Virus record (IMG/VR): IMGVR_UViG_3300045988_147517
Location: 55,186-119,185 of that record
Direction: 5' to 3' (one strand)
Length of the DNA: 64,000 bases
From: a virus
Below, one piece after another: positions 20,924 to 60,241 of this stretch; position 1 is the stretch's first letter; every line of letters begins with the position of its first letter. Under the pieces are notes generated by a model. The model saw only the letters and a program-made list of their open reading frames with translations, ran no database searches and was not told the origin of the DNA. Position numbers and translations under genes: made by a program.

Positions 20924-20980
20924 TATATCCTTTTACAAATAAATCCGCTCTATGGTCAAAATCAAACGATTACATATATA
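20924..20980. repeat. conserved noncoding element X, copy 2 of 3
   Basis: TATATCCTTTTACAAATAAATCCGCTCTATGGTCAAAATCAAACGATTACATATATA. Confidence 0.75.
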
Positions 20981-22468: not shown

Positions 22469-23014
22469 TTAGTATATATCCTCCATTTTTACATAAATAT
22501 CAATTTCGCCATACTCAAAACAAACAGAATACCAAATATAGTTAAAGTATTGTCCGGATAAACCGTTATTTTTACAATCCGGATAATCAAATTTTTCCAA
22601 AAATTCCTCAAACTCGTCAAGGCTCATTCTTGCGCCATTATATTCATCTAGAACCTCTTCTTCTGTTAATGTTTCAAAATTGTAAAAACCCTCGTCACAT
22701 TCCATACATTGCCAATTATAACCATCTATTTCACTTTTAACAAGTTCCTGCCCACAATTTTTACAAAATCTCTTTTCTTGTTCGCTCATTTTCAATTCAC
22801 CTCTTTTAATAAGTATTTCCTCTAAAGCTTTCTTGTAACCTTTGTAACTATCGGTTTCAGTTCCATTCGTTAGCTCGAGCATTCTTTTTAATTCTGCCTC
22901 ACAGAATCTAACGCCAAAGTTTTCACAATCACTGATACAATGGTCATGACCGTGTTTTTCCCAATATCTCTGTTTTTCCTCTTTACTCATTTTTGCTGAC
23001 CATCTTTTATTCAT
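22469..23014 (-). CDS. hypothetical zinc-ribbon protein
   Basis: 181-aa ORF; CKNCGQ...CMECD. Confidence 0.6.
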   Translation of the reverse strand: MNKRWSAKMSKEEKQRYWEKHGHDHCISDCENFGVRFCEAELKRMLELTNGTETDSYKGYKKALEEILIKRGELKMSEQEKRFCKNCGQELVKSEIDGYNWQCMECDEGFYNFETLTEEEVLDEYNGARMSLDEFEEFLEKFDYPDCKNNGLSGQYFNYIWYSVCFEYGEIDIYVKMEDIY

Positions 23015-23057
23015 TTTGTGTTCCTCACTTTCTTAACCATATTCAATTCATGCCTTA

Positions 23058-23086
23058 ATTATACACGCCTTTTTTATAGCTGTCAA
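23058..23086 (-). promoter_or_regulatory. sigma-A type promoter
   Basis: -35 TTGACA is rc of 23081-23086; 17-nt spacer; TGTATAAT is rc of 23058-23065. Confidence 0.75.
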
Positions 23087-23094
23087 CCTTTTTA

Positions 23095-23637
23095 TTAAAA
23101 ATTTAAGGATTCAAACAAGCCTAACTTTGTTTTCCGTGCAATTAATAATTTCCCTCTTCTTTCCACAAGCGGGAAAACCATTTTTAAAAATGCAATATAG
23201 TCTTGCGTTTTTGCGTTTCGCTGGTATCCCTTACAAGTTAACTTCCCTTTTCCGCTTCTGTCTCCCTCATAAACGTTCAGGAAGAGCGTCCCATGGACGT
23301 TCAAGTTGTTATATATATCCTCTAATATATCTATAATAACATCGTTTTCCGCTATTACATTTAGCACATTAGCGCACAAACAAACATTCACGCCGCCCAT
23401 TTGCTCAACATTCCTGAACGTTTTTAAATTACTTTCTCTGCTTCTGTTGTATTTATCATATGGCAGGACGGTAATATTTTTGCTTTTATAATATTCTATT
23501 CCAGTGTTATATTTTCCAGCGCCATAGTCTAGAATCGTGCTGTTTTCCGTTATGTATTTTTCCACTATCTTATAAAGTGCTGGAACCTTGTTTTTATTTA
23601 TAGACGTTTCCGCACTACTATATTTTTGCTTATCCAT
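23095..23637 (-). CDS. class I SAM-dependent methyltransferase
   Basis: Motif I ILDYGAGKYN; 180 aa; substrate unknown. Confidence 0.65.
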   Translation of the reverse strand: MDKQKYSSAETSINKNKVPALYKIVEKYITENSTILDYGAGKYNTGIEYYKSKNITVLPYDKYNRSRESNLKTFRNVEQMGGVNVCLCANVLNVIAENDVIIDILEDIYNNLNVHGTLFLNVYEGDRSGKGKLTCKGYQRNAKTQDYIAFLKMVFPLVERRGKLLIARKTKLGLFESLNF

Positions 23638-23647
23638 TTTCTACCTC

Positions 23648-23767
23648 CTATAATAAGTTAATTAATGCCGCTAACGGGCTTAACTCCGGCATTAAAACCG
23701 CCAAACCCAAAGACAGAACCAAAGTACCAATACTAAGATAAAATTCTTTAATTTTGTTATATTTCAT
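23648..23767 (-). CDS. possible 39-aa membrane peptide
   Basis: ATG 23767 after GGGAGGA; hydrophobic LSIGTLVLSLGLAVLM. Confidence 0.3.
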   Translation of the reverse strand: MKYNKIKEFYLSIGTLVLSLGLAVLMPELSPLAALINLL

Positions 23768-23771
23768 TTTT

Positions 23772-24008
23772 TTAATCCTCCCAGGGATGTTTTTGCCCAA
23801 TTTCGAAACGTGCGCCAAAGTTAAAATATGTTTTATTTTTACTACACTCATAATTGTAAAAAGCATTCTCAGGGGCTTTGCGCTCTATCAGCTTTCTACA
23901 TTCTCTTTCTGTATAAAGTTCACCGCCTACCAAAAACGTATAATATTTTCCCTTTTTGTTAAGAACCATTATACCGTCATATGCTTCTTTTACTTTTTTA
24001 TACTTCAC
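23772..24008 (-). CDS. hypothetical protein
   Basis: 78-aa ORF behind promoter 24047-24075. Confidence 0.6.
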   Translation of the reverse strand: MKYKKVKEAYDGIMVLNKKGKYYTFLVGGELYTERECRKLIERKAPENAFYNYECSKNKTYFNFGARFEIGQKHPWED

Positions 24009-24046
24009 TTTGTTACCTCGCTTTCAATATTTTCAATTGTGCTTAA

Positions 24047-24075
24047 ATTATGCACGTTTCTAATTGCGCTGTCAA
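24047..24075 (-). promoter_or_regulatory. sigma-A type promoter
   Basis: -35 TTGACA is rc of 24070-24075; 17-nt spacer; TGCATAAT is rc of 24047-24054. Confidence 0.65.
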
Positions 24076-24145
24076 GTAAAATTTTTGCTGTTTAAGAAAT
24101 GTTTTTTTTAGCTCCTTGTATACAAGCGATTATTTTTAAATTGCC

Positions 24146-24203
24146 CTTATATTTATACCTTTAGAAAAAAAGTCCGCTCTAAACGTCAATAAATCGTTTA
24201 CAT
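24146..24203. repeat. conserved noncoding element Y, copy 3 of 3
   Basis: CTTATATTTATACCTTTAGAAA...CAATAAATCGTTTACA. Confidence 0.6.
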
Positions 24204-24354
24204 GAGCCATATGAAAACGCAAATTTTGCGCCCTGACCACTAAAGTTTATTCAGGCTCTCATTATTTAATTTTATAATACGCCTACCGCTTTATGCGCTA
24301 CCACTCTAATTGTTTCGCCATATTCACTTTATTCATTCGTTTTAACAGGTATCC

Positions 24355-24405
24355 TATATCCTTTTCTAAATAAAGTCGCTATATGGTCAAATTTAAACGA
24401 TTACA
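24355..24405. repeat. conserved noncoding element X, copy 3 of 3
   Basis: TATATCCTTTTCTAAATAAAGTCGCTATATGGTCAAATTTAAACGATTACA. Confidence 0.75.
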
Positions 24406-24553
24406 CGCCTATTTATAAAGCGCCATGGCTACAATCTATTCTTATTGAGTTTACTTCAGCGCCATAACCATAATCAGTAAGTGTTCAATTATATTTACTT
24501 GATTCGTTTGCCCTGATTTATTGTACATCATCTAACATTGTTCATAATACCCG

Positions 24554-24751
24554 CCTTTGTTATATCGCTCTAACAATATTCAGTTTGCCTATCTTTGTAA
24601 GTTTGCGCTACCTCTGTTATAGTATCCTTACTTTGTTTATCCCCATGTTCTAAGTTAGTCCCATCTTAATAATTTAGCCCTATATAATTTTATTCAGCTA
24701 TTCTATTTTTGTTTGCGCTTCGCTTACTTTGTTCGTCTCGTCTAACTTTGT
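24554..24751. repeat. array of degenerate ~20-30-nt units each containing CTTTGTT or a close variant
   Basis: CTTTGTT at 24554, 24630, 24726 and 24745; variants CTTTGTA at 24592, CTCTGTT at 24611 and TTTTGTT near 24706; no ORF. Confidence 0.55.
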
Positions 24752-25128
24752 TTAAATCAATTTACAATTTGGTTTTGTTTTAAATTAAAATTAATTTTAT
24801 TTTAATTTTAATAAGGTTGCGCCAAAGACGAGCCTATTCTAGTTTTAAAATGCGCTTTCTATTTAACTTATTATTAGATTGCGCTTTAAATTGTAATCGT
24901 TTGATTTTCGCTTTATAGCTGTTTTATTTTTATTCAGGATATATTATACCTCTGTATTTATAAGCGCCATAACACCCATCTAAATAGTTTATAATAATAT
25001 TTCGCCTATCTAAATTATATTAAAATTATTAATTATATTGTTTTGCTCTATGTTTGTTCTTTGTTCATTGTATTATTGCAAACAAGTGTTCTTGCTCTGC
25101 TTTGTTTGTTTGCTTAATGTATGTTATG

Positions 25129-25220
25129 TATATATGTTTAATGTGTTTATCTATGTATAATGTACTAACATGTATGTATGTGTGTGCTACGTGTGTTATA
25201 TATATATGTTTAATGTGTTT
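25129..25220. repeat. 20-nt perfect direct repeat in a TG-rich low-complexity tract
   Basis: TATATATGTTTAATGTGTTT at 25129-25148 and 25201-25220. Confidence 0.7.
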
Positions 25221-25480
25221 GTTCTCTTGTTATGTATTGTTCTTGTGTGTGTTTAATGAACTGTCAATGTCCATGGACGTGTAAAGCATGTGCTTAAGAG
25301 GATAGATAACATGTTAATGGGTTGTTGTGGTGTGTGTAAAATATTTTTTTTTATTATGGAAAGTATTTTTTTATTTTTAGATTGGTTTAGGTTGATATGG
25401 AAATACTTAAAAAGTTGCTTTCTTTTTACCCTTAAGCAATTTTAACCGTGGTTAATATTAAATTTTTAATTTGTTCAAAT

Positions 25481-25510
25481 TTTAAAGTTTTAAAAAACTA
25501 ACTTTGTTAT
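25481..25510. repeat. inverted-repeat element (copy 3 of 3)
   Basis: TTTAAAGTTTTAAAAAACTAACTTTGTTAT. Confidence 0.6.
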
Positions 25511-25984
25511 CCTGAACTAACAAGTACCTACTAACTATATTTAGTGGGTATCTTTTCAAAACAATAGGTGATATTTTAAGTGTAAAGGATTACACTATCA
25601 CCCCTACTTCTCAACTTTGGTTTTGAAAATTTTCAGAAATCGTTACCATGCACTTTCATTCCAGACCCATATACAAATTTCTACAATTTTTTAACAACCT
25701 TCAACAAAAAAAATAAATTTTAAACACATTACATTAAATTTAAAAAATCTCCTCTAGCGCCATATCACTATATTTAGTTTTTGATAAAAGATGATTTTCT
25801 TAAATTTATCCTCTAATTGACAATTTTGATGAAGATTTGTACACAGACACTTAGCGCAAATTCATCTCCTAAAATTATTAGTAAATAGCCGCATTTTATA
25901 ATCTAAAAAAATATTATCATTTTCTTAAATTATTGTATAAGTTTTTATTATTATTGCATTAAAGTTTTAAATAATCTAGGATTA

Positions 25985-26430
25985 TCATCTTCTGTAGATA
26001 TTTGAAGGAATCTTAAAGACGGCTCTCAGTCTAGCCAGAAAAGCATAGGTGTAGTTACCAAGGACTTTATGATTATGGCGCGGTACGTATAGGGGCAATC
26101 AGGTTTCACTTACTGAGTTCTACCAAGGTCATGAGTGGTGCGTTGTTAAAGTTCGGTAAGTCAAAGAGATTAACTGCAAGGCGTTCATTTTAAGACAAAT
26201 TAAAGGGGCTTTTCACCAAAGTGGAAAGTACCTTTAATTTAATAGGCTTAAAATGATAAGCACCAAAGATAAAAAATTGTCCGTTTGGCTTAGCGGGCTT
26301 TGACCTTGTAGCACCATAGAGGAATGTATTTCCAAAGCCCCTATTTTTTACACACAGATGTGTGCTCCACCCCGCATATGTGCTAGCTTTTAAGGGGTGG
26401 CTCTATAATATATATATTATATAGAGAGAG
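25985..26430. ncRNA. candidate structured RNA or structured DNA region (unclassified)
   Basis: No ORF of 60 aa or more in any frame. Visibly higher GC than the flanks. Nested hairpin 26200-26237; 8-bp stem 26295-26302/26333-26340; hairpin 26351-26364; 7-bp stem 26367-26373/26394-26400; palindrome 26401-26426. Confidence 0.3.
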
Positions 26431-26546
26431 CATTAAAAAAGAGATGATTTAAGCGTTCTACGTAGAGATGTGAAAAAAAAAGATTCTAAAATACACTTTC
26501 TTCGAAACCGTATTTTCTCGTTTCATTTTTACACAAATTTGGCAAG

Positions 26547-26627
26547 TTATCCACAGGGATGTTGATAAGTCTAAAGTTATCCACAGAAGTTATCCACAGG
26601 CTGTTGATAACTAGGCACTTATCCACA
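26547..26627 (+). promoter_or_regulatory. DnaA-box cluster (candidate replication origin)
   Basis: Perfect TTATCCACA at 26547, 26577, 26590 and 26619, all in the same orientation. Inverted one-mismatch boxes TGTTGATAA at 26560 and 26602. Confidence 0.75.
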
Positions 26628-26637
26628 GGTAGCGCAA

Positions 26638-26661
26638 TAAAAAAAAAGGCGTTAAGCCTTT
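26638..26661 (-). terminator. rho-independent terminator of the helicase-like gene
   Basis: Stem AAAGGC/GCCTTT (26645-26650 / 26656-26661) plus a 9-nt T-run on the minus strand. Confidence 0.65.
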
Positions 26662-28001
26662 TTTCGAGATTTATTAAAGTAGCGGGATTTTTGGTAGGGC
26701 ACGTAGGCGATTTCTTCATCGTTGAGCCATTGAGTGAAAAGCGTTCGCATACGCAGGGATGGAATGTAGAGGTAAATTTCTTCATTATTTCTTATGGCGC
26801 TTCTCCATACCCATTGAACCATATCAGCCAGCGCGAATTTATCTTGGTCGACGGCAATATTTCTAATTGAAAAAAGTTGTTTAATAAAAGGGTTCATGTA
26901 GCGGTTTACCATGTAGGCGCAATGTGTGCGGTTTCCATATTCGTTTGTCGCTTTAGCATTGAGTGGAACAAAAGCCCTTCTACTAATGCGCGCTGGCTTC
27001 ACTTGCTTATTAAAAGATTTAAAGGTGGTATACATTCGTTGTTTTGGTGGCGCGCTTCTCAGAAAATTAAAGATACATCGGCTTACATCCTCAAGTTCCT
27101 CTGGATGTGAGGCATACCAATTATTACTAAGCGTACTGGAGAACTCCTGATTATTATTTGCTACATAAGGTCGACCAATTTCATTAAGGCTATCACTCTG
27201 GCAAATGTGGATAAGCGGTTTTACATTTTTCTTCCATTCTCTCTCATAGTCTTGGTTAATGGTTGGAACAAAACAATATTGTCCATTTTGGCGCTCTGTG
27301 TGATAATATTCATATGTTATATCATAGAAGCGATAATAGTATGCCTGCATTTGATGTTCAAACATGTAGGTAAGGATAAAAACGTCATTAAAAATATCCT
27401 CTTCGAAAACCTGTACGGGGAACGACCAAAATAAGGCACTATCATTAATATAGTAGAGCAGTCCATTATCGGCCAAATGTTTCATGTGTTGGTAGCGTGA
27501 TAAATCAGCCCATTCTTCTTTTGACCAATTCACTTGAAAATCTGGGTCGATAGATACATATCCTTTGCGAATAAAAGATGCCATATCCTTTATTGTATGA
27601 AGTTGCCTTTCTCTTTCGGTGAAGTTGGATTCGGAATACTTACATAAGTCATATTCATTAATAACGTTTATGACCTCGTCTAGAAATAAGATATAATTCC
27701 CACCTCTTAAGATATCGAGCAACTCTTTGTCTACATAAGAAAAGAGCGCATGTGTACAGACGATATTTTCTCCTTTTGCAAGTAGCGCTTTTAGGTGCCT
27801 TCCCTTGGTTCCAAATTCTTCCTCAGATGGTTGAACAAAATTCTTTGATTCACATTCTTTTATAACCCTATCACATTCGGTTAGGAATGGTGTTACAAAC
27901 ATAATATTGGTATCATTCCCTAACATATTAATATGATGAATGGCGGCACTTGTTTTGCCGCTACCCATCGGAGAGTCAACAACTTTAATTCTTCTTTTCA
28001 T
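26652..28001 (-). CDS. P-loop NTPase, SF2-helicase-like (candidate replication initiator or helicase)
   Basis: Walker A SPMGSGKTS, Walker B LFLDEV, motif-VI-like VWRSAIRN. Confidence 0.6.
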   Translation of the reverse strand: MKRRIKVVDSPMGSGKTSAAIHHINMLGNDTNIMFVTPFLTECDRVIKECESKNFVQPSEEEFGTKGRHLKALLAKGENIVCTHALFSYVDKELLDILRGGNYILFLDEVINVINEYDLCKYSESNFTERERQLHTIKDMASFIRKGYVSIDPDFQVNWSKEEWADLSRYQHMKHLADNGLLYYINDSALFWSFPVQVFEEDIFNDVFILTYMFEHQMQAYYYRFYDITYEYYHTERQNGQYCFVPTINQDYEREWKKNVKPLIHICQSDSLNEIGRPYVANNNQEFSSTLSNNWYASHPEELEDVSRCIFNFLRSAPPKQRMYTTFKSFNKQVKPARISRRAFVPLNAKATNEYGNRTHCAYMVNRYMNPFIKQLFSIRNIAVDQDKFALADMVQWVWRSAIRNNEEIYLYIPSLRMRTLFTQWLNDEEIAYVPYQKSRYFNKSRKKA

Positions 28002-28035
28002 ATAATTCTCCTTATCTTATATAAAGTCCAATTAC

Positions 28036-28064
28036 ATCTTATCATACCACTGACGCTTTGTCAA
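28036..28064 (-). promoter_or_regulatory. weaker sigma-A type promoter for the helicase-like gene
   Basis: -35 TTGACA is rc of 28059-28064; 17-nt spacer; -10 TAAGAT. Confidence 0.45.
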
Positions 28065-28086
28065 GTTTAATTTCTTGCAATGGGGC

Positions 28087-28115
28087 TTGACATTTAATTA
28101 AATCTGTGCTATAAT
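28087..28115 (+). promoter_or_regulatory. sigma-A type promoter opening the rightward arm (divergent from 28036-28064)
   Basis: TTGACA at 28087-28092; 17-nt spacer; TGcTATAAT ending at 28115. Confidence 0.75.
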
Positions 28116-28148
28116 AGAGCCAGAGCAAAATAATACAGGAGGATGTTA

Positions 28149-28322
28149 ATGAAATGTGATAATTGTTATTGGAATATATATTGCTCGCAGGCAGAAATGG
28201 ATTTAAATATTAATGGTAATTACTGTTATCATTTTGATGATATAGATAGCGGCGGTGAATATGTTCCGACTAGGGATGATTTTTATGACGAGTTTTACAA
28301 ATACGTAGAGGAATATAACTAA
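28149..28322 (+). CDS. small Cys-containing acidic protein (57 aa)
   Basis: AGGAGG at 28137-28142, ATG at 28149; hand-translated MKCDNCYWNIYCSQ...; below the track cutoff. Confidence 0.5.
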   Translation: MKCDNCYWNIYCSQAEMDLNINGNYCYHFDDIDSGGEYVPTRDDFYDEFYKYVEEYN

Positions 28323-28490
28323 ATGGATAATGAATCTTATAACTTAGACGAATTGTTAGAAGAAATTGCAGATGATGCAAACAAGCTATTTGATGAATGT
28401 TGTGATGAATGGGACAAGGCGTCAATGCGTAGAAAGATTATTGACATTATATGGAAAGTGTATGATGGCGAATTTAAGGAGCTAGACTAG
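28323..28490 (+). CDS. small acidic protein (55 aa)
   Basis: ATG abuts the previous stop (TAAATG); hand-translated MDNESYNLDELLEEIADD... Confidence 0.45.
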   Translation: MDNESYNLDELLEEIADDANKLFDECCDEWDKASMRRKIIDIIWKVYDGEFKELD

Positions 28491-28506
28491 AAATGAGAGG
28501 TTAAAA

Positions 28507-28743
28507 ATGTTTTTTGGTATTGGAAGTTTACCCTTTTGGCTATGCGGCCTACCTATTTTAGTTGGATTGTTTTTTATAGCATGTGCTAACCCAGAAAAAT
28601 ATATTTATCCACATGTTATAAAACACGAAGAGAGAAAGCGCAATTCATCGCCTTCACCTTATAATTCGGGAGAGGGAATTATGATTGTATGTGTTTTAGC
28701 TTGTGCTTTTATTTTAATCTATATATTGAAGTTATGGTGGTAG
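28507..28743 (+). CDS. small membrane protein
   Basis: 78-aa ORF with two hydrophobic segments; GAGAGG RBS. Confidence 0.55.
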   Translation: MFFGIGSLPFWLCGLPILVGLFFIACANPEKYIYPHVIKHEERKRNSSPSPYNSGEGIMIVCVLACAFILIYILKLWW

Positions 28744-28744
28744 A

Positions 28745-30691
28745 ATGAAGAATCGACAATTTTATATAGTAAAACTAAATAGTTCTGATTTAAAGTATTT
28801 CAAATATACTTTAGAGGGGGATTTTGATATTTTTAAAAAGCGCGACCAGATAGCCGCGGTGGCAGATAGTCAGACATTAAGGTTGATTAGAGAACTTACA
28901 AATAAAGATGTAGACTTGGAAGAGATTGAGAAGTTATACAAAAAAAGAGATTGGCTCAAAAAACAGGAGAGCACACAGGCCGCTTCAAATGAAATTGCTT
29001 TTTTGCAACGTAAGATTAATAACGCTATGTTTATTCCAGAATATGTCACAGTCACCATGAGTGGAAATAAACAATATGAGTATTTGTTCGAAAAAGGATT
29101 TGAGCTTATTATAGATGGTAGGCGCATTCATTATAAGCGATTGTCATGTTCGGCAGGGCAGGCTCGTGTTTCTACTGTTGTATTCTGTGATAGTAATATT
29201 ATTGATGAATTGGAGCGTCGATTAAACAACGGACGTGATATGAACTTTAAGATAGCGCCATCTAAATTCAATGCATACTTTGGATTATATACTTCCGCAA
29301 CTAAAGTAGTTAGCGAGCCTAACTTTTGTGTTGTGCCAGACTATGAAAATAATTTGGATGTAGAGGTAAATTATGTAACTGAAACGGATTATGATTCGGA
29401 CGATTTAATTGATACGCGAACCGTCAACTTAGGGTTTAACCGAACTGATGGGATGGGGCTAATAAATTATGAACGCGCCTCTAAATGGGCAGAAGAGTTA
29501 GGGCTAGATTATGTTCCGGCCCAATTTTGCATACGACAATCATTTATTAAGGGAATGTTGTGCACCTTTCCCATTCAAGAGTTTTGTGAGCTTGTTAATT
29601 ATGGTAATTATATCACAAAAGATATTTATGGCGCTGAAATAGATTTGAGGGACTATGATGTTATTTTAACGGAGAGCCAATTTAAATTGTGGGGTGCTTA
29701 TCCAAATCTTGATTATTACAAAGAATGTTGCCATAAAAATAATCTTAAATGGGGTGTAGCTATTTATACCCCTAAGCATGATAAAGATATTATCAAGATG
29801 AACTATCAATTTCTACAAACATTAGATTTATCAGACGAAGATATTGAAAATTTATGCTCAATGTTTGTTAATTGGATTCAGGGTGTAACTTGTGACAACT
29901 TAGGATACACGCTCCTCTATTTAATTGGAGAGGGTAAAACTGAAGAAGAAGTTCGGGCCTACATGCGTAGCCCGGATAACTATTGGATTAAATCTTTAAT
30001 TATGGAGCCGGAGTTAATTAAAGATAGGTATATCAAACAGAAGATATATCGCCTAATTAAAAAGCGCATTCAAGACGGTTGCCTAGGAGAGATTATTTTA
30101 AATGGCAACTTTCAGGTACTCGTAAGCGACCCATTTGGATTTATGCAACATGTATGCGGGTTAGAGCCAACTGGGTTACTTGGCGCTGATGAGTATTACT
30201 CTAACTATTGGAATGAGCGGGATGTAAAAGTGGTGGATGGTATGCGTTCCCCCTTGACATATCGCTCCGAACATGTTAAAATGAAGTTAGTGAGAAACAG
30301 CCGTATAGATTATTGGTATCGTTATATGTATACGGGCGTTGTTCTTAATTACCATGGACACGATGTAATGTGTTTTGGTGGCGCGGATTTTGATTATGAT
30401 ATTTTAGCCACTACTGATTGTCCAGAGGTGGTTAATGGTATATATCCAAATGAGTTACCTGTCTATTATGAGCCACCCAAACCAGCGAAGATAGTGCCTA
30501 CAAAAGAGGATTTGTTTAAATCAGACACATTCAGTTTTGGTTCTATCATTGGTAGCATTACAAATAAAGGTTCTAGCGGATATGCATTACTTTCCGACAT
30601 TGAATATATGTATGGGAAGAATAGTATAGAGTATGTTACTACGCTAAATAGATTAAAAATGTCTTGCAAGTTACAGAGCGCGCAAATTGAT
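28745..30691 (+). CDS. YonO/RdRP-like single-subunit RNA polymerase, exon 1
   Basis: VVDGMRSPLTYRSEH ... FGGADFDYDIL resembles the RnPxxHpgD ... GGDxDGD catalytic-barrel signature of QDE-1/RDR/YonO-type polymerases. The exon ends ...SAQID at a U, followed by an in-frame TAA at the start of the intron. Confidence 0.65.
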
Positions 30692-30965
30692 TAATGTTGG
30701 TCACTTCATAGGGAAACCTATGTCGAAACGTGGTGAACACTCAGAGAGTGGGTATACATATATTGTATGCTATCGGGGAAAGCTAAAGCCATAAGGTATG
30801 CCAATCCCGAGCCGAACACCTATTGGAGGTGGAGGTGTAACGACTATCCGCAAGGAGTAGCGCCATAGCGATATGGTGGCGAAGTGCCACGCCCCTAACG
30901 TAAAGCCGAGGGTGAAGATATAGTCTAGTCCCCTAACAAATATCGGGAAACCGAGGGTATGAACG
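30692..30965 (+). mobile_element. group I intron (274 nt, no ORF)
   Basis: Contains the canonical core GAAGATATAGTC and AACGACTATCCG; ends in G. Splicing joins ...SAQID to KAKIGREVKG... in frame. Confidence 0.75.
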
Positions 30966-31799
30966 AAAGCGAAAATAGGAAGAGAAGTAAAAGGAATTCC
31001 TAAAATATGGGTCAAACGCCAGAAAATAGAAGATGACGACGATGAACAAACGATTAAATATAAGGAGCGGATGAATTATTTATGTCTAGACAGGCATCCT
31101 TATTTTTTTATATATCGTTATGCTGATACCAGAAAGAAATATCGCAAGCACATTGACACTTATCAACATTGGTGCAAGACTTCATTTAGATTGTCTCTAG
31201 AGGAATTATTTAAGGTAGAAAATAAGACACAGCAACAAAAGGATTTTTTAGCTGGATATTTCCGTTATATGCCTGTTATTGATAGCAATAGTACGATGAA
31301 TCGTATTTGCCATTATATTGAAGGGTTGAATATGAATGTACGTAGCCACCTTAAAGTAAAAGAAGGGCACGACATGCATAAATTATTTATGCCTGATAAT
31401 ATTGAATGGAATGAAGAGCGCTACAATAATGTGGTAGAAGCCTATAAGCGTTATTGCAAGGAGTGCACAAAAATGAATTCTCTTGGCGCTTCTAATTTTG
31501 ATTTTGAGACAACGAAGGATTATGATTTTTACGCTTCTATGTTTATAGGAATGTTGTATTCCTATGTCAATGAGGTATGCAGTAATGTGTACGAAGCCAT
31601 TACATATTTGGCGCATTATATGTATGTGGAAAAAGATAGCGCCAATAAGGAAATGCTATGGCAAACATATGGGTATGAAATATATAGTATGATTAAGGAA
31701 AGAAATAGCGGTTACATTATGTTTCCACTAGAAGATGAAGATGGTGATATAGAGTATTTAAATAAAAGGTATTCTATGCAGGAGGTTTGTATTGATTGA
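30966..31799 (+). CDS. YonO/RdRP-like RNA polymerase, exon 2
   Basis: The frame is open from 30963. The junction restores QID-KAKIG, similar to the (A/S)xDxxKxG motif downstream of DxDGD in RdRP-type enzymes. Confidence 0.6.
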   Translation, partial: KAKIGREVKGIPKIWVKRQKIEDDDDEQTIKYKERMNYLCLDRHPYFFIYRYADTRKKYRKHIDTYQHWCKTSFRLSLEELFKVENKTQQQKDFLAGYFRYMPVIDSNSTMNRICHYIEGLNMNVRSHLKVKEGHDMHKLFMPDNIEWNEERYNNVVEAYKRYCKECTKMNSLGASNFDFETTKDYDFYASMFIGMLYSYVNEVCSNVYEAITYLAHYMYVEKDSANKEMLWQTYGYEIYSMIKERNSGYIMFPLEDEDGDIEYLNKRYSMQEVCID

Positions 31800-32946: not shown

Positions 32947-33022
32947 TGGGGTATAGCCAAGTCGGTAAGGCACCAGACTTTGACTCTGGGATGCGTAGGT
33001 TCGAGTCCTTCTGCCCCAGCCA
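32947..33022 (+). tRNA. tRNA-Gln (anticodon UUG), CCA encoded
   Basis: Acceptor TGGGGTA/TGCCCCA, anticodon arm CCAGA-CTTTGAC-TCTGG, T loop TTCGAGT, 3' GCCA. Confidence 0.8.
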
Positions 33023-33196
33023 ATAATTTGATAATATTTATATGCCCAGACAGCAAAATTAAAGTTTTTATTAAGCCAAAAAAAACATAAATTGGGCGTA
33101 GTTTTAATTTTTAACCTCATTTCTTTGTGCGCTTACAGCAAACATTTTTGGATATTACTTTTAATAATACACCCAAAAAGCGCCCAGTCTTATTTT

Positions 33197-33270
33197 GCCA
33201 CTATAGCATAACGGTAGTGCGAATGATTTGTAATCATTTTATCGGGGTTCGACTCCTCGTAGTGGCTCCA
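33197..33270 (+). tRNA. tRNA-Thr (anticodon UGU), CCA encoded
   Basis: Acceptor GCCACTA/TAGTGGC, anticodon arm AATGA-TTTGTAA-TCATT, T loop TTCGACT, 3' TCCA. Confidence 0.8.
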
Positions 33271-33470
33271 TTTTATAATCAAACCAACCGTTGTTAGGAC
33301 GGGGATAGCTCGTTGACACTTAACCATAAGGTTATTGAGCGAGAAGTACGTTAGTATGCCTAAATATAAAAAAGTTTTTGGCATGTCTCCGATTGGGCGC
33401 GAACAGCAAAGTATTGATTTTTTAGAGAAAAAATTAAAGCGCTCAGAGAATTATTGAAAGAGGTACACAC

Positions 33471-35006
33471 ATGTTTATTGAAAATTTACGAAATACTTTA
33501 AATGATGAAAAACAACTGACAGAGAATGGCGCTTTAGGGTATAAGACCAGCGGGCATAAGCTTGTTGATTTAAACTTTAGAGCTTCTACACTTCGGTATG
33601 AAGAAGATGAAAAAATCAAAAGTGCGTTTCTAGACGCTTTTGCACAAGAGCCAGAAATGGCAGTTAAGTGGTTATTCTTTGCGAGAGATATTCGTGAGGG
33701 TATGGGAGAACGTAGAGTGTTTAGAGTTATCATTCAACACCTGTGTAATTCTTATCCCGACCAAATGTGTGAAATTTTGGAATACATTCCAGAGTATGGG
33801 AGATGGGACGATTTAATTTATATCATTAAGAGAAGAGTTCCTGATAAAATTTTCAACAAGGTAGTTGGTATCATTGTAAATCAATTACGTGAAGATATGG
33901 AAAATGCATTAAATGGCAAAAACATTTCGCTTCTTGCTAAATGGATGCCAAGTGAAAAGTCCCATAATAAAGAAGCGCGCAATGTAGCCTACAAGGCTAT
34001 GAGTTTTCTTGGATTAACTCCTAGGAATTATCGTAAGATGATTTCTGGATTAAGGAAAACTCTTGATGTGGTAGAGCGTAAAATGAGTGCAAATGAATGG
34101 TCGTTTATTAATTATTCATCCGTTCCTTCAAATGCGAATTTGAAATACAGGAATGCATTCAATAGACATGACCATGAAAGATATAATGACTTCTTAACGA
34201 AAGTATTGACAAAAGAAGCTAAAATGAATTCTTCAACATTGTATCCTCATGAAATTGTTAAAAAATATAGAAGTGACGATATGTGGGAGGTTAGTTATTT
34301 CCCCGAATTTGAACCTGATTTAGAGGCATTGTGGAAATCCTTACCACGAGACAACTCTCTTAAGGATACAATTGTTGTTAGTGATGGCAGTGGCAGTATG
34401 TATACTACTGCGTATGGCGTTCAACCAATTGATGTTGCACAAGCACTTGCTATTTATTTTTCAGAAACCTGTCAGGGAGAATTTAAGGATAAATATATCA
34501 CGTTCAGCCAAACACCACAGTTAGTAGATTTTGGTAAGGCAGAGAATTTATTAGATAAGTTAAAAATTATTGATAAATATAACGAGGTTGCTAATACAGA
34601 TATCGAAGCTGTGTTTGACTTAATCCTAAAAGTCGCTACAGATGCTCATATGGCGCAGGAGGAAATTCCTAAGAATATCCTAATCATTAGCGATATGGAG
34701 TTTGATAGCGCTACATCTGCTCCGTTTTTTAGTGATGAACCATCAAGAGTGAATAAAACGTTATTTGATAGTATCTCTGAAAAATATCATAATGCTGGAT
34801 ATGAAATGCCAAAATTAATTTTCTGGAATGTGTTATCGAGAACCAATACCATTCCATTAAAGGAAAATGATTTGGGGGTGGCGCTATTAAGCGGATATTC
34901 TCCGGTTATTGCAGATATGATTATGTCGGGTAGGTTAGACCCATATAGCATTTTAATTGAAAAATTAAATAGCGAAAGATATAAAGATATTAAATTTAAA
35001 TTATAA
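33471..35006 (+). CDS. DUF2828-like / von Willebrand A (vWA) domain protein
   Basis: N-terminal TENGALGYKTSG...FFARDIREGMGERRVF; MIDAS-type VVSDGSGSM in the C-terminal half. Confidence 0.6.
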   Translation: MFIENLRNTLNDEKQLTENGALGYKTSGHKLVDLNFRASTLRYEEDEKIKSAFLDAFAQEPEMAVKWLFFARDIREGMGERRVFRVIIQHLCNSYPDQMCEILEYIPEYGRWDDLIYIIKRRVPDKIFNKVVGIIVNQLREDMENALNGKNISLLAKWMPSEKSHNKEARNVAYKAMSFLGLTPRNYRKMISGLRKTLDVVERKMSANEWSFINYSSVPSNANLKYRNAFNRHDHERYNDFLTKVLTKEAKMNSSTLYPHEIVKKYRSDDMWEVSYFPEFEPDLEALWKSLPRDNSLKDTIVVSDGSGSMYTTAYGVQPIDVAQALAIYFSETCQGEFKDKYITFSQTPQLVDFGKAENLLDKLKIIDKYNEVANTDIEAVFDLILKVATDAHMAQEEIPKNILIISDMEFDSATSAPFFSDEPSRVNKTLFDSISEKYHNAGYEMPKLIFWNVLSRTNTIPLKENDLGVALLSGYSPVIADMIMSGRLDPYSILIEKLNSERYKDIKFKL

Positions 35007-38137: not shown

Positions 38138-39142
38138 ATGGGAAGAAGCGTAATAAAAGCGCCAGAAGAAATGTTCACCTGTATCGAATGTAATGAGAAA
38201 AAGCGAAAAGCTGATTTCTATAAATCATATCATCCAGATAGCAAGGACGGGATAATTCCTTATTGTAAAGAATGCTCTCGTAAAAAATGTTCGGATGAAA
38301 AAGGTAGAGTAGTTAAAGAGAAGTTAATGAACTTCCTTAAGGATGAAAATGTTAATAAGCCATTTATAGAAGAAGTGTGGAATATTAGTGTTTCTGATAA
38401 AAGAGAAACGCTTGGCATATATATGCGTAACCTAGCTTTAACAAAGTACAGAGATATGGGTTGGAGTGACGGAGAAACAAATGCGTACACTGGCGGTTTA
38501 ACAATAGATGATTTAGATGGAAGTTATCATAGTACGGATTTTGAAGTAACACCAGAAATTATGAAAATGTTTGGTGAAGGGTATTCAGAAATGGAATATA
38601 AAGTCATGTATGATAAATATGATAAACTAAGTCCGTTTTATGCAATGCCTACTCCATTCCATCGGGAAGCTTTAATGAATTACGTTAGGGCAAAAGCAAA
38701 AGAGGAAGTTGCTATTACCCAGAATAGAATGACTGATGCTAAGTTTTGGGGCGATATTGCTCGTCAAGCGGCAAAGGATGCTAACATAAATCCTAGCCAG
38801 CTAAGAGAGCAGGATACAAAAGATGGTTTAAATAGCTTTTCTAAGATATATGAAGAAGTGGAACGTGCTGTTGACATCGTTCCAATATTACCAAAATTCA
38901 AACACCGCCCAGCGGATTCAGCAGATTTTATTATTTATACCGAGGCTCTTTATGTAAGAGATTTATTAGGAATGCCGCCATGTTCTTATGAGGATGTTTA
39001 TTCGTTCTATGATAGAGCGGTAAATTCTTATCTGGAACGATATGGTGATAAATATGGTATTTTTACAGATGACCCAACTATGGAAAATAGGCCAAGAATA
39101 CGAGCATTTCTAGATGAATGTAAGGATATCGTAGATGGCTAG
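38138..39142 (+). CDS. zinc-finger protein, possible small terminase subunit (by position only)
   Basis: CIECNEKK...CKECSRKK; overlaps the start of the large terminase gene. Confidence 0.35.
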   Translation: MGRSVIKAPEEMFTCIECNEKKRKADFYKSYHPDSKDGIIPYCKECSRKKCSDEKGRVVKEKLMNFLKDENVNKPFIEEVWNISVSDKRETLGIYMRNLALTKYRDMGWSDGETNAYTGGLTIDDLDGSYHSTDFEVTPEIMKMFGEGYSEMEYKVMYDKYDKLSPFYAMPTPFHREALMNYVRAKAKEEVAITQNRMTDAKFWGDIARQAAKDANINPSQLREQDTKDGLNSFSKIYEEVERAVDIVPILPKFKHRPADSADFIIYTEALYVRDLLGMPPCSYEDVYSFYDRAVNSYLERYGDKYGIFTDDPTMENRPRIRAFLDECKDIVDG

Positions 39143-42100
39143 TTATAACAATTTTAGTCAAGCTGTTCAGCGGGAACACCAAAGGCGCGCTGGTCTGTTA
39201 GGTGAAGTTAACACAGTAAAATTTAAAAGTGATGGTATGCAGGATTCTTTTGATAGAAATTTAGATAAATGGATTTATTTTTCGTCATGGAGTCGCTGGT
39301 ACCCAGATTTGTTTTTAGATTTAATTCACCCTAGTGACGGTGGTATTGTATTAGATTTAGACCAAAGAGTATTCCTAAGAAGCATATTAAGATTTGTGAG
39401 TGTATACGGAGTGTACCCCCGTGCATATGGAAAATGCGAAAGCTTGAATAGTTATTTGTATACCGACAAAGGAATGTTACAGCTCTCAGATTTTATTGAT
39501 AGCAAATATGAATATCATGCATCTGATTTCGACACAGTCAATAAATATGGTGAAATGGAGCATACCTACTTGGCCACATATAATGGGTATAAACCAACAC
39601 TTAAGATTAAGACGAAGTATGGGTATGATAATGAATGCACAGATAATCACAGGCTTATGGTTATGGAAGAAGATGGGAATCTCGCTTGGAAATATGCTAG
39701 AGATATTAGAGTTGGAGATTATATATGTGTAAATCGTCATAATAATATATGGGGAAATTTAACAGATATATCTTATGCTACAAATAATCTTTGTGAAAAT
39801 ATTTCTAAGTTATGTAATAAATATAACTTTATCACTGAGAATACACCAGATTTTTCTTATTTAATAGGGTTATTAGTTGGGGATGGCAACACAACACTTA
39901 AATCACAAATTACCTTAACATCGGCTGATAGTGAAATTTCAGATTTCTTTATTAAGTATGTTAAAGATAATTTTTCTTATGATGTTCAAAAATATGGAAA
40001 GTATGAATATAAAATCTATTCGACTTATTTAAGAAAATGTCTATATAATTTGGGCATAAAATATGATACGTCTCATACAAAGGAGATTCCGAGATTTATC
40101 CGACAATCACCAAAAGAATGCTGTAGAGGTTTTTTACAGGGGTTATTTGACACTGATGGTGGTGTAGAGCAAAAAATTGTTTCATATGCTACTACTAGCG
40201 AAGAACTTAGTAGGCAAGTACAATTAATGTTATTGAATTTTGGAATTATTTCTAAAAGAGTATTTTGTGACAGAGGTGAGTTTAATCATTGGCGCATTTA
40301 TATAATGGGAGAGAATGTTAATATTTTCTATAGCAATATCGGATTTAGGTTAAGTAGGAAGCAGGAACAACTTAGGTCGATATTAAAACCTGTTAATGAA
40401 ATAAATACGAACACAAATTATATACCATACCAGAAAGACAATGTAAATGACTTCTTTGAATATATTAAGAAAAAAGGAGAGCATAATTCTCAAATATTTG
40501 ATAAATTTTATCATGTAAGAAAAGGAAATAATGAACTAACATATAACAAAGCTACCATTTTATTGGATGAATTCCACTCTTTTAAAGATTGCGGAGACGC
40601 TCCACAATTATTTGGTATAATAGAAAGAGATTATTTTTATACTCCTGTTGTTGGAATTGAAAATTCTGTTGCGGAAACAGGGGATATAAATATGCCGGAC
40701 ACTAATTCATGGATATGTAATGGAGTTGTATCTCATAATACCTTTATAGAAGTTTTATCCTTATTCTTAATATGTATGTTTTATCCGAATATCGAAGTAG
40801 CTATGACCGCACAAACTCAAGCGAATGCGGCTAAGATGCTAAAAGATAAGTATAATGAAATCATACGATATTGGCCTATATTAAAAGATGAAATAAGTGG
40901 ACGGCCAAGTTTCAACAAAGATACTGCCGAGATAAGGTTTGTCAATGGCTCTATTATGAATGTATTGGCGAATAACCAAAACAGTAAAGGGCAGAGACGT
41001 AAAAGAATTAATATTGAAGAGTCTGCGCTACTTGACAACGTAGTGTTCGACGATGCTTTAAAGCCAATTGTTGACTTCCCACGATATACTGTTGGTAAAT
41101 TGGCCATGGTTAATCCAGAAGAAATCAGCCAGAGAATTGATTTCTTCACGACAGCGGGTTTTCGTGGTTCAGATGAACACAACCGAAGCATTAATATGGT
41201 GGAAGGTATGGCAAATAATTCTGGCGAGTTTGTTACTGGCGCTGATTGGAAGTTGGCCGCATGGTATGGCCGTGGTACAACCGTTGAGCAAATGGCTCAG
41301 AGAAGAAAATCTAGCTCCTCCATATCTTTTGCTCAGAACTATGAAAGTAGATGGGTTGGTGCTTCTGAGAATCAGTTAGTTGACATCAACAGATTGTTAT
41401 CGTGTAGAAACTTATCATTACCAGAATTTGAACGGGAAGATGATAACGATGAGTATGTATTTGGCATTGACGTTGCTCGTTCTCAAAAAGATGACAATAA
41501 TAGAAGTTCAGTATCCATATTAAAGATTATTAGACATTCTAACAATTCGGTAAAAGAGATAAGACTGGTTAATCTTATTATTATTCCAAATGCTTACACA
41601 TTTACAGCACAAGCCATAGAGATAAAGAGGCTCTATAATGTCTTTAGGCCAAAAATGTGCGTTATAGATGTTAACGGTTTGGGCGTTGGGCTTAAAGATG
41701 AACTTCTAAAAACCCAGATAGACCCGGGCACAGGTGAGAGTTTGGTTGCATGGGATACAATCAATACTGGTGATGAATCTGAGGTTGTTGGCGCTGAGCA
41801 ATGTTTATATGGATTATATCCTCAGCAGGCTCAAAGCAAAATTACAGTTACATTTATGGATATTGTAAGTAGTGGCAAGTTACGTTTGTTAGAACTTAAA
41901 GATGATTCTTCTTTAGATTTATTCTCTAAGGATGATGTTTTGGCGTATGCGCCATTCAAACAAACTGATGAACTGGTTAATGAGATTATTAACCTTAAGG
42001 TAAAATATAATAATAACGGTTCTCTTGGGATTGAACGTGTTGTTAATAATATTGATAAGGATAGATATACATCCTTAGCATATGGTGTATGGTGGATTAT

Positions 42101-42221
42101 GGAATTTGATAATCAAGCTAATAGCGAAGATGGCACGATGTCACAATTCTTTAAGAAAGTTAATAGGAATGCTATAACTGGTGGTTCGCCTACACGTTTA
42201 ATAAAAAAAATATTTCGCTAA
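39135..42221 (+). CDS. terL: terminase large subunit precursor (contains an intein)
   Basis: Walker A YPRAYGK/T is split by the intein. Downstream ATPase region and RNaseH-like nuclease (VFGIDVARS). Confidence 0.8.
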   Translation: MASYNNFSQAVQREHQRRAGLLGEVNTVKFKSDGMQDSFDRNLDKWIYFSSWSRWYPDLFLDLIHPSDGGIVLDLDQRVFLRSILRFVSVYGVYPRAYGKCESLNSYLYTDKGMLQLSDFIDSKYEYHASDFDTVNKYGEMEHTYLATYNGYKPTLKIKTKYGYDNECTDNHRLMVMEEDGNLAWKYARDIRVGDYICVNRHNNIWGNLTDISYATNNLCENISKLCNKYNFITENTPDFSYLIGLLVGDGNTTLKSQITLTSADSEISDFFIKYVKDNFSYDVQKYGKYEYKIYSTYLRKCLYNLGIKYDTSHTKEIPRFIRQSPKECCRGFLQGLFDTDGGVEQKIVSYATTSEELSRQVQLMLLNFGIISKRVFCDRGEFNHWRIYIMGENVNIFYSNIGFRLSRKQEQLRSILKPVNEINTNTNYIPYQKDNVNDFFEYIKKKGEHNSQIFDKFYHVRKGNNELTYNKATILLDEFHSFKDCGDAPQLFGIIERDYFYTPVVGIENSVAETGDINMPDTNSWICNGVVSHNTFIEVLSLFLICMFYPNIEVAMTAQTQANAAKMLKDKYNEIIRYWPILKDEISGRPSFNKDTAEIRFVNGSIMNVLANNQNSKGQRRKRINIEESALLDNVVFDDALKPIVDFPRYTVGKLAMVNPEEISQRIDFFTTAGFRGSDEHNRSINMVEGMANNSGEFVTGADWKLAAWYGRGTTVEQMAQRRKSSSSISFAQNYESRWVGASENQLVDINRLLSCRNLSLPEFEREDDNDEYVFGIDVARSQKDDNNRSSVSILKIIRHSNNSVKEIRLVNLIIIPNAYTFTAQAIEIKRLYNVFRPKMCVIDVNGLGVGLKDELLKTQIDPGTGESLVAWDTINTGDESEVVGAEQCLYGLYPQQAQSKITVTFMDIVSSGKLRLLELKDDSSLDLFSKDDVLAYAPFKQTDELVNEIINLKVKYNNNGSLGIERVVNNIDKDRYTSLAYGVWWIMEFDNQANSEDGTMSQFFKKVNRNAITGGSPTRLIKKIFR
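39435..40739 (+). mobile_element. intein with LAGLIDADG homing-endonuclease domain (435 aa)
   Basis: Starts with Cys (CESLNSYLYTDKG); block B TDNHRLMV; LIGLLVGDGN and LQGLFDTDGG; ends VVSHN followed by Thr +1. Confidence 0.8.
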
Positions 42222-59179: not shown

Positions 59180-59938
59180 ATGGCTATAAGTAGAGAGTAT
59201 AAGGTTAAGATAAAGGCTACTGTTGACCCTAGTGAAATTTCTAAACAAATAGAGGCCTTAAGTAAAAATAGTAAAATAAAATTTGATACTGGCGGTATTG
59301 ATGCGGTTGGTAAAAGTGTTGGAAATACGAGCAAACAAGTTAAAGGATTAGGAACTCTAGTAGATGGAGTGTTTGGAAAATTTAACTTATGGTATGGAAT
59401 TGCTCAACTTTCTCACCAAATCTATAGTGCAATTGGAGACGTTGTAACCAATACGATAAAACTAGATACTGCAATGACAGGTTTAGCAAAAGTAAGCGAT
59501 ATGTCAAAACAGGATTTAACAGCGTTTGCTAAATCTGCTGGCGAAGCAGGGGTTGAAATAGGAAAAACAACAACTCAGATGATTGACGCGGCTACAGTGT
59601 TTGCACAGGCTGGATGGAGTGACCCGGGCGAATTGCAACAACTCGCCACTATGGCTGGTATGTTTACTAATATCGCAGACACTCAGACGAGTACGGCAGA
59701 ATCCGCAGAATTTTTAATTGCTACTATGAAGGCATTTAATTTGACAGCCGATGACACAGAGCATATTATTGATGCGGTTAATGAAGTATCAAATAAATAC
59801 GCAGTAAGTTCGGGTGACCTTGCATCATCTGTTGGTAGAGTTGCTTCTACACTTGCTATTTCTGGTACAACGCTAGAACAGACCTTAGGGTTAATGACCG
59901 GGGCGACAGAGATTGTCAGAAATCCGGGAAAAGTGGCT
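59180..59938 (+). CDS. tail tape measure protein, exon 1
   Basis: Typical TMP N-terminal region; ends ...RNPGKVA, followed by an in-frame TAA at the start of the intron. Confidence 0.7.
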
Positions 59939-60241
59939 TAATTTTAGGTCGGATATATGGTAACATATATTCAAAAACACTCTAATTGACGGGAAACCCC
60001 TTAGAGCTTTATCAACCAACCTATGATGGTGACATACATAGGGGCTTGACGTAATGGTTAAGGTATGGTAAAATAGATAAAGATTGGGCAATCCGCAACC
60101 AAGCATCTCAATGAGATGAAGGCTCAACGACTATCCGAGAGGAGTACATATCAAGTGATGTGGAAATGGGTGTCCCCTCACATGAGGGTGAAGATATAGT
60201 CTAGTCCCCTAACAAATATCGGGAAACCGAGGGTAGAAACG
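59939..60241 (+). mobile_element. group I intron (303 nt, no ORF), paralogue of 30692-30965
   Basis: A 52-nt block at 60184-60235 is identical to 30908-30959 (GAGGGTGAAGATATAGTCTAGTCCCCTAACAAATATCGGGAAACCGAGGGTA). It shares AACGACTATCCG, the 5' TAAT start and the 3' AACG end. Confidence 0.75.

Follow-up and report, generated by a model that had tools for sequence, protein, structure and literature searches.

A lineage-specific non-coding island with constrained plus-strand pairing in an origin-like region of an SPbeta-like phage

The stretch of DNA analysed here, 64 kb long and called the window throughout, belongs to an SPbeta-like tailed phage with a genome of about 118 kb. Its genes point leftward left of about position 24000 and rightward from 28745. 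The 649-aa product of 28745–30694 matched single-chain RNA polymerases of the YonO type, namely that of Bacillus phage BUCT082, with 56% identity, and those of SPbeta and several Clostridia phages. Further left lies a yonV homologue (Table 1), whose product has PF27199 (YonV_C) among its precomputed hits and a weak Herpes_ori_bp match restricted to the Walker A region. Among public assemblies, 115 blocks contain the exact YonV protein, and the contigs concerned measure approximately 118–119 kb; the sample labels of these assemblies (GAIO21-1) presumably denote a pig-gut study. Literature searches for yonV or for the SPbeta origin gave nothing relevant.

After codon 649, a 274-nt insert (30692–30965) interrupts the YonO-like polymerase gene, whose second exon starts at 30966; the related phage L032 has an uninterrupted 926-aa YonO-like gene. 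The Rfam group I intron model gave the insert 43 bits (E 7e-10), short of the 50 required at gathering, and we conclude that the insert is an ORF-less group I intron that is missed by the default scan. A second group I intron lies at 59929–60224, and 39135–42221 encodes a 1028-aa protein with an intein and a LAGLIDADG domain; the phage carries several self-splicing elements. At 32947–35006, tRNA genes for Gln (TTG) and Thr (TGT) stand directly upstream of the gene for a 511-aa DUF2828/DUF7788/VWA protein. We take this domain pair to resemble Ro60/TROVE proteins, which bind small RNAs.

The stretch 3′ of yonV is free of genes. A sequence-only reading of the DNA had claimed that no ORF of at least 60 aa lies in any frame between 25284 and 26486, which holds (the longest are 51, 37, 33 and 31 aa), and the gene-free stretch proved larger than first noted, extending over about 2.6 kb (24009–26651). 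Gene callers left its equivalent empty in the window phage and in every relative that we fetched, and it is kept gene-free at 2.3–2.7 kb in L004, L032, L033, L036, L040 and L042. It has three conserved blocks (24023–24414, 24612–24953 and 25376–25663) and a hypervariable part that adjoins yonV. The third block gave no convincing overall RNA fold; it holds a hairpin or palindrome at 25525–25550, TACCTACTAA...TTAGTGGGTA, with compensatory changes among lineages, for example GATAA/TTATC in L033. A 51-nt element of the early region, at 24355–24405, recurs at approximately 20924–20974 and, inverted, at 24892–24929, and is 94% conserved in L004; several metagenome contigs (L010, L039) stop within it or close by, and a break in assembly at the repeat is the probable cause. 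The segment 25040–25340 is G+T-rich and of low complexity, with direct repeats of 28–46 nt and a GC skew of up to +0.6, and the 76-aa ORF with a TTG start that lies there (25054–25284) is probably spurious.

The gene-free region has several features of an origin. The hexamer AGCGCA/TGCGCT, often as WAGCGCAAA, is present in 7–11 copies per gene-free region in all lineages; the window has seven copies in one orientation at 23879–24885 and further ones at 25853 and 26631, and in the window as a whole we counted 29 copies against 15 expected. These repeats resemble a set of iterons or operators that some protein would bind. A stretch of 22–25% GC follows at 25664–25984. The sign of the GC skew changes at about 25000–26000, a switch that coincides with the switch in gene orientation and is thus no proof of an origin. 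Closer to yonV, a (TA)n element of the TAATATATATA type lies 170–250 nt from the yonV stop in most lineages, including L004, L033, L036 and L042; in the window it forms the core of a 26-nt palindrome, which may be an unwinding element or a promoter. The neighbouring DnaA boxes that the sequence-only reading had mentioned are real, two of the six having one mismatch. They are present in the window lineage, where they lie 200–280 nt beyond a U tract described below, and in L032, and are absent from relatives with YonV about 60% identical. In those sister lineages, AAAAAGTGCG directly precedes the TAATATATATA-type element and more CGCACTT-type boxes lie nearer yonV; the DnaA boxes of the window lineage take the place of these boxes. 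In herpesviruses, UL9 box I (CGTTCGCACTT) adjoins an (AT)n centre, and the AAAAAGTGCG/(TA)n arrangement of the sister lineages may, together with YonV's weak Herpes_ori_bp match, offer a lead. A DnaA-dependent origin of the oriC or plasmid type may be considered for the window lineage, with AT-rich elements at 25664–25984 and 26401–26426 near the box cluster. Taken as a whole, the 2.6-kb region looks like a replication or regulatory module.

Table 1 Features in and around the island (positions in the window; strand given where assigned)
Feature	Position	Strand	Remarks
Sigma-A-like promoter candidate TTATCA-16-TATAAG	25914–25941	+	Weak; read from sequence; faces the island
Sigma-A-like promoter candidate TTGCAT-17-TAGGAT	25954–25982	+	Weak; read from sequence; faces the island
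Near-palindrome ATAATC-TAG-GATTAT	25971–25985		Part of the aaataaTYTARGAWWAT motif
5′ part of candidate RNA	25985–26128	+	Most sequence-conserved part
Irregular long hairpin, 192 nt	26129–26320	+	Arm alignment, self-match, pairing probabilities
Small hairpin GGAAUGUAUUUCC	26321–26333	+	Predicted fold
Likely 3′ end of candidate RNA	26321–26349	+	U tract at 26344–26349
Two GC hairpins, CACAC/GTGTG and CCACCCC/GGGGTGG	26351–26400		Diverged 31%; unfolded in L032
AT palindrome, 26 nt	26401–26426		Core TCTATAATATATATATTATA conserved
DnaA box cluster, six boxes	26547–26627		Four perfect TTATCCACA; two TTATCAACA in opposite orientation
Hairpin between an A run and a T run	26641–26668		Read from sequence; overlaps the yonV stop codon
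yonV homologue, 449 aa	26652–28001	−	P-loop, helicase-like; convergent with candidate RNA

Next to these elements lies the island at 25985–26430, which had been singled out as an ORF-free, GC-enriched and hairpin-dense segment. Its enrichment is borne out: in 200-nt windows, GC content is 0.38–0.415 across 26000–26399 and lower on both sides (0.22–0.30 over 25300–26099 on the left, 0.305 at 26400–26599 on the right), so that an island of about 40% GC stands in flanks of 22–30%. Folding of 25985–26430 gave a z score of −4.6 against dinucleotide shuffles on both strands, with minimum free energies of −134 kcal/mol for the plus strand and −116 kcal/mol for the minus strand, which makes the plus strand 18 kcal/mol more stable. 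When 200-nt windows were scanned across 23000–29000, the plus-strand z score of −4.7 at 26100–26299 was equalled by one other window only, and the segment 26180–26262 alone reached −6.8.

All five helices that the sequence-only reading had listed exist, but three of them contribute little or nothing. The nested hairpin at 26200–26237 is present as the tip of a much larger structure, a 192-nt imperfect hairpin (26129–26320). The GGGCTTTG/CAAAGCCC helix can form as an alternative local pairing, but as a local hairpin it is not significant (z −0.7) and its stem competes with pairing inside the long hairpin. The CACAC/GTGTG and CCACCCC/GGGGTGG helices fold in the window but are lost in L032, where divergence over them is 31% and the z score falls from −3.2 to −0.55, and they probably lie outside the conserved element. 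The 26-nt palindrome is likewise present, with only its 20-nt core conserved.

We predicted the plus-strand fold by energy minimization. In the 5′ part, small hairpins at 25989–26007, 26017–26032 and 26034–26079 are accompanied by a hairpin at 26102–26124. The sequence AUAGGGGC (26089–26096) is predicted to pair with GCCCCUAU (26337–26344), closing a domain that holds the long hairpin and two small hairpins and is followed by the U tract. In the long hairpin, whose stems have pairing probabilities of at least 0.9, about 34 bp interrupted by small bulges form the lower stem; above it come an internal loop at the centre (approximately 26171–26184 opposite 26257–26279) and an upper stem of about 30 bp that ends in a CAAA loop (26217–26220). 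Aligned with each other, its arms give 63 Watson–Crick and 8 G·U positions, and nhmmer matched this region to its own reverse strand. At the 3′ end, CAAAGCCC (26333–26340) could alternatively pair with GGGCUUUG (26295–26302) in a terminator-like stem; this stem has a 30-nt loop and a z score of −0.7 and was not called by a terminator scan. The likely 3′ end does not look like a canonical intrinsic terminator, and the U tract, which lengthens to seven in L032, alternatively follows the helix 26089–26096/26337–26344.

No curated RNA family accounts for the island. The large-RNA families that had been put forward for comparison (ROOL, GOLLD, HEARO and OLE), as well as 6S, gave no match in it, and the Rfam 15 covariance models at gathering threshold, which include raiA, tmRNA, RNase P, group I and II introns, T-box and riboswitches, gave none anywhere in 24700–26700. 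With the threshold relaxed to E ≤ 10, for 2 kb and for 376 nt alone, we obtained only low-scoring noise, namely miRNA precursors, snoRNA, scaRNA, sRNAs and a plastid 3′UTR motif, on the long hairpin and elsewhere. ARAGORN found neither tRNA nor tmRNA in the island, in agreement with the sequence-only reading, which had itself named a decayed coding gene as one outcome that would overturn it. The island has no ORF and no protein-family signal, its six-frame translations having matched nothing in Pfam or PHROG. A pseudogene or recoded gene found no support, and reading through TGA or TAG opens no ORF; a type I toxin was rejected on the lack of a plausible small hydrophobic ORF in the six-frame translation. 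A MITE or other dispersed repeat was also rejected, there being no second copy in the window. Among 50,697 phage and 72,556 plasmid records, none matched the DNA of the island, which has no homology to SPbeta or BUCT082 DNA either, and an 18-mer scan of IMG/VR found it only on a contig already included in the comparison. We conclude that the island lies outside every curated RNA family and that it resembles origin-associated structured transcripts and long irregular hairpin RNAs.

We sought relatives by YonV in viral, metagenome and genome collections, which yielded either near-identical phages or phages at 62% identity or below, with none between 64% and 89% YonV identity in the collections searched. 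Five distinct variants of the island were available in all. Four are at least 96% alike (the window, the L005/L046 group, L003 and L044), and the fifth, from L032 (YonV 89% identical), is at 88%. Divergence between the window and L032 is uneven along the locus: 4.7% at 25985–26175, 27.6% in the hairpin tip (26176–26262), 8.0% at 26263–26349, 30.9% at 26350–26430, 17% at 26431–26540 and 3.6% in the DnaA-box segment. Four-fold degenerate sites of yonV differ at 27% overall and at 35% in the adjoining 150 nt, and 25985–26175 and 26263–26349 evolve 3–6 times more slowly than neighbouring neutral sites. The 28% diverged tip of L032 retains the same architecture (z −3.6) with a re-registered apex, and 8% of random mutants of the tip fold as well as the L032 version (p 0.08). 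Two adjacent pairs within it are compensatory (26186/26255 from CG to UA and 26187/26254 from AU to GC). We conclude from this pattern that the island is under selective constraint and probably functional.

The more distant phages L004, L033, L036, L040 and L042 (YonV 59–64% identical) share the three conserved blocks with the window, and blastn and nhmmer found no homology to 25663–26652 in any of them. They have their own GC-richer stretch of 0.4–0.5 kb at the slot, which is not unusually structured. The sister lineages thus carry unrelated, unstructured sequence there, from which it follows that the element and the DnaA boxes are specific to one lineage and that structure is not a general requirement at this position. 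Turnover at the slot is evident also between L036 and L040, whose last 330 nt differ entirely despite 92% identity over the rest. The element is thus a lineage-specific cassette in an often-replaced slot.

Such turnover raises the question of whether the island has any function of its own, rather than being what is left of an inserted palindrome, a mobile element or a vanished cargo gene at a hot spot of recombination downstream of yonV, its apparent conservation reflecting recent mosaic exchange. Lineages, L036 and L040 included, share no homology over the last 0.75–1 kb before the yonV stop; the window and L032 match in patches throughout the locus, some blocks being 100% identical; and an imperfect inverted repeat of 190 bp resembles a decaying palindromic element, all of which would fit. 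We nevertheless regard this reading as improbable. Recombination poorly explains divergence that alternates (5/28/8/31/17/4%) over stretches of 80–190 nt, and the strand-asymmetric substitutions described below are unexpected for neutral duplex DNA. Moreover, a remnant of this kind sits poorly with the single copy in the window, the lack of island copies outside the homologous position in 43 loci and the lack of a protein-family signal, and long neutral decay would hardly have left 40% GC in a non-coding background of 25–30% GC.

The left edge of the island carries promoter-like signals. Two weak sigma-A-like candidates face it, and neither passed a simple consensus promoter scan. For TTGCAT-17-TAGGAT the predicted start is near 25989, at the left edge of the GC-rich block, and in close variants the G of its −35 element is replaced by A. 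Where the other candidate lies, L004 and L033 have TGGTATAAT or TGGTATTAT on the same strand, promoter-like and stronger, about 40 nt upstream of the motif aaataaTYTARGAWWAT and facing the equivalent block. This motif immediately precedes the variable GC-richer block in the window, L032, L004, L033, L036 and L040, 440–677 nt from the yonV stop (L042 gave no match), and its near-palindrome may be an operator, or part of a promoter or leader. On the far side of the origin-like elements, the hairpin at 26641–26668, which the terminator scan did not call, could from its sequence act as a bidirectional terminator for yonV and for rightward read-through.

We asked on which strand pairing has been maintained. 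To avoid circularity, we used no sequence but that of the window for the structure prediction and only then classified every distinct substitution in the four variants. Among one-sided changes in pairs, the plus-strand fold had 10 that kept pairing and 3 that broke it, the latter contiguous at 26341–26343, and nine of the ten lie in 26129–26320 or in neighbouring helices of that domain. The minus-strand fold had 4 kept and 13 broken (Fisher p 0.009 for plus against minus). All eight transitions at plus-strand Watson–Crick pairs gave G·U and none gave A·C (binomial p 0.004); in the alignment of the hairpin arms alone, the excess of G·U over A·C was 8:3, which is not significant. Exchanges between A and G outnumbered those between C and T inside the island only (15:5 and 7:2), with a balance in flanking non-coding DNA and in yonV. 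In a curated alignment 98.6% of cells pair, a value reached by 10 of 500 shuffles. Two pairs are changed on both sides, which 24 of 500 shuffles match, and with five sequences, four of them at least 96% alike, the covariation is thin. These substitutions support, on thin evidence, a single-stranded plus-strand molecule under selection for folding.

Preserved plus-strand pairing is what a structured RNA predicts, and single-stranded DNA fits it equally, as G·T pairs would be tolerated there too. The island might then act as a plus-strand DNA origin element, a single-strand initiation or primosome-assembly site of the ssiA, pas or sso type, with a fork or D-loop opening rightward from 25664–25984 and the plus strand serving as lagging-strand template. 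ssiA belongs to pAMbeta1, pas sites are of the phiX174 type and sso sites are those of rolling-circle plasmids. Like these, the island is strand- and orientation-specific, hairpin-rich non-coding DNA beside an origin; the region is origin-like, the element sits directly beside the stretch of 22–25% GC and near the DnaA boxes, and the promoter and terminator signals are weak. However, G·T is weaker in DNA, yet eight such positions are kept, and the conserved 5′ 145 nt (25985–26128) have little strong local structure. Known ssi sites measure 55–200 nt, so that the candidate is longer than is typical, conserved sso motifs were not recognized in it, and the relatives have no comparable hairpin at this position. 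We consider a DNA element of this kind rather unlikely.

The explanation that we prefer, with a confidence just short of even, is that approximately 25950/25989–26349 encodes a plus-strand structured non-coding RNA that acts at the origin-like region. Given the origin-like surroundings and the promoter-like signals, we suppose that the island is transcribed rightward into an RNA of about 360–400 nt, and we infer that the folded molecule is RNA rather than single-stranded DNA. The candidate RNA would be read from left to right, convergent with yonV, beginning with the small 5′ hairpins, continuing into the domain closed by AUAGGGGC/GCCCCUAU and dominated by the 192-nt hairpin, and probably ending at the U tract. 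On its left lie the iteron-like array and the AT-rich stretch, and on its right the (TA)n element, the six DnaA boxes and the 3′ end of yonV. From a promoter some 0.4 kb upstream, transcription would approach the (TA)n element and then the DnaA boxes, and the most likely role would be control of replication in cis, in the manner of a plasmid pre-primer or an origin-activating transcript. The earlier suggestion of a structured RNA or origin element accordingly fares well in part: the island is non-coding and constrained, keeps pairing on the plus strand and is restricted to one lineage. Its designation as a large ncRNA is not supported, as a candidate of about 0.37 kb in one narrow lineage does not establish membership of that class.

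An RNA from the island might instead act in trans as a stand-alone, protein-binding molecule, serving as a decoy for the host sigma-A RNA polymerase or against host defence, an idea that we think improbable. Since the phage brings its own YonO-type polymerase, encoded 2 kb away, a decoy of the host enzyme would help it. The constraint on the plus strand is compatible with such an RNA, and lineage-specific, fast-replaced sequence is typical of conflict functions. The predicted architecture and size also fit the outline of 6S RNA (RF00013 and related families), with an irregular hairpin of about 190 nt in which a large central loop separates the lower from the upper stem, here in a phage with its own RNA polymerase. 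Unlike 6S RNA, the candidate has no covariance-model match (neither 6S nor a related family at E ≤ 10 on 376 nt), its upper stem exceeds those of known 6S RNAs in length and regularity, and it has a long conserved 5′ extension, whose 145 nt are the best-conserved part and are unexplained by a 6S-like model.

A broader and quite unlikely proposal is that the island represents, as its first known example, a new class of phage RNAs that control the polymerases acting on the phage genome, either as 6S-like decoys or as ColE1-like pre-primers; in both cases the sister lineages would have swapped in unrelated cassettes at this slot. If the decoy version were true, the host sigma-A RNA polymerase would be sequestered while the YonO-type enzyme takes over; if the pre-primer version were true, a 118-kb tailed phage would start replication from a transcript beside captured host DnaA boxes. 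A real RNA here would be a structured molecule with no known family in the replication or regulatory region of widespread SPbeta-like phages of the pig and human gut. The element is known from one narrow lineage, which limits its practical value for now; the region, itself unusual, could reveal how these large phages start replication and exchange origin modules.

Among known systems, ROOL and GOLLD resemble the candidate in being structured, GC-enriched blocks without ORFs in Firmicute phages, but the candidate is smaller and has no Rfam match. In SPbeta, an unannotated ncRNA lies near yonO and yonK, at the YonO-dependent late promoter where the late operon begins (PMC5467207). The candidate differs from it in position, being on the other side of yonV and not upstream of the late operon. 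For an RNA acting at the origin, as we prefer, the comparison is with ColE1 RNA II and other transcription-activated origins (ColE1/pBR322 and the pAMbeta1 family). The setting differs from theirs in being a large tailed phage rather than a small plasmid, the transcript would be convergent with the neighbouring gene, no RNase H/Pol I site or antisense regulator was identified here, and the equivalents of the island in relatives are not strongly structured. The likeness lies in the arrangement: a candidate promoter a few hundred nucleotides upstream that faces an AT-rich element, a putative structured transcript of several hundred nucleotides whose sequence differs widely among related replicons, DnaA boxes just past the presumed initiation zone and an adjoining gene of replication type.
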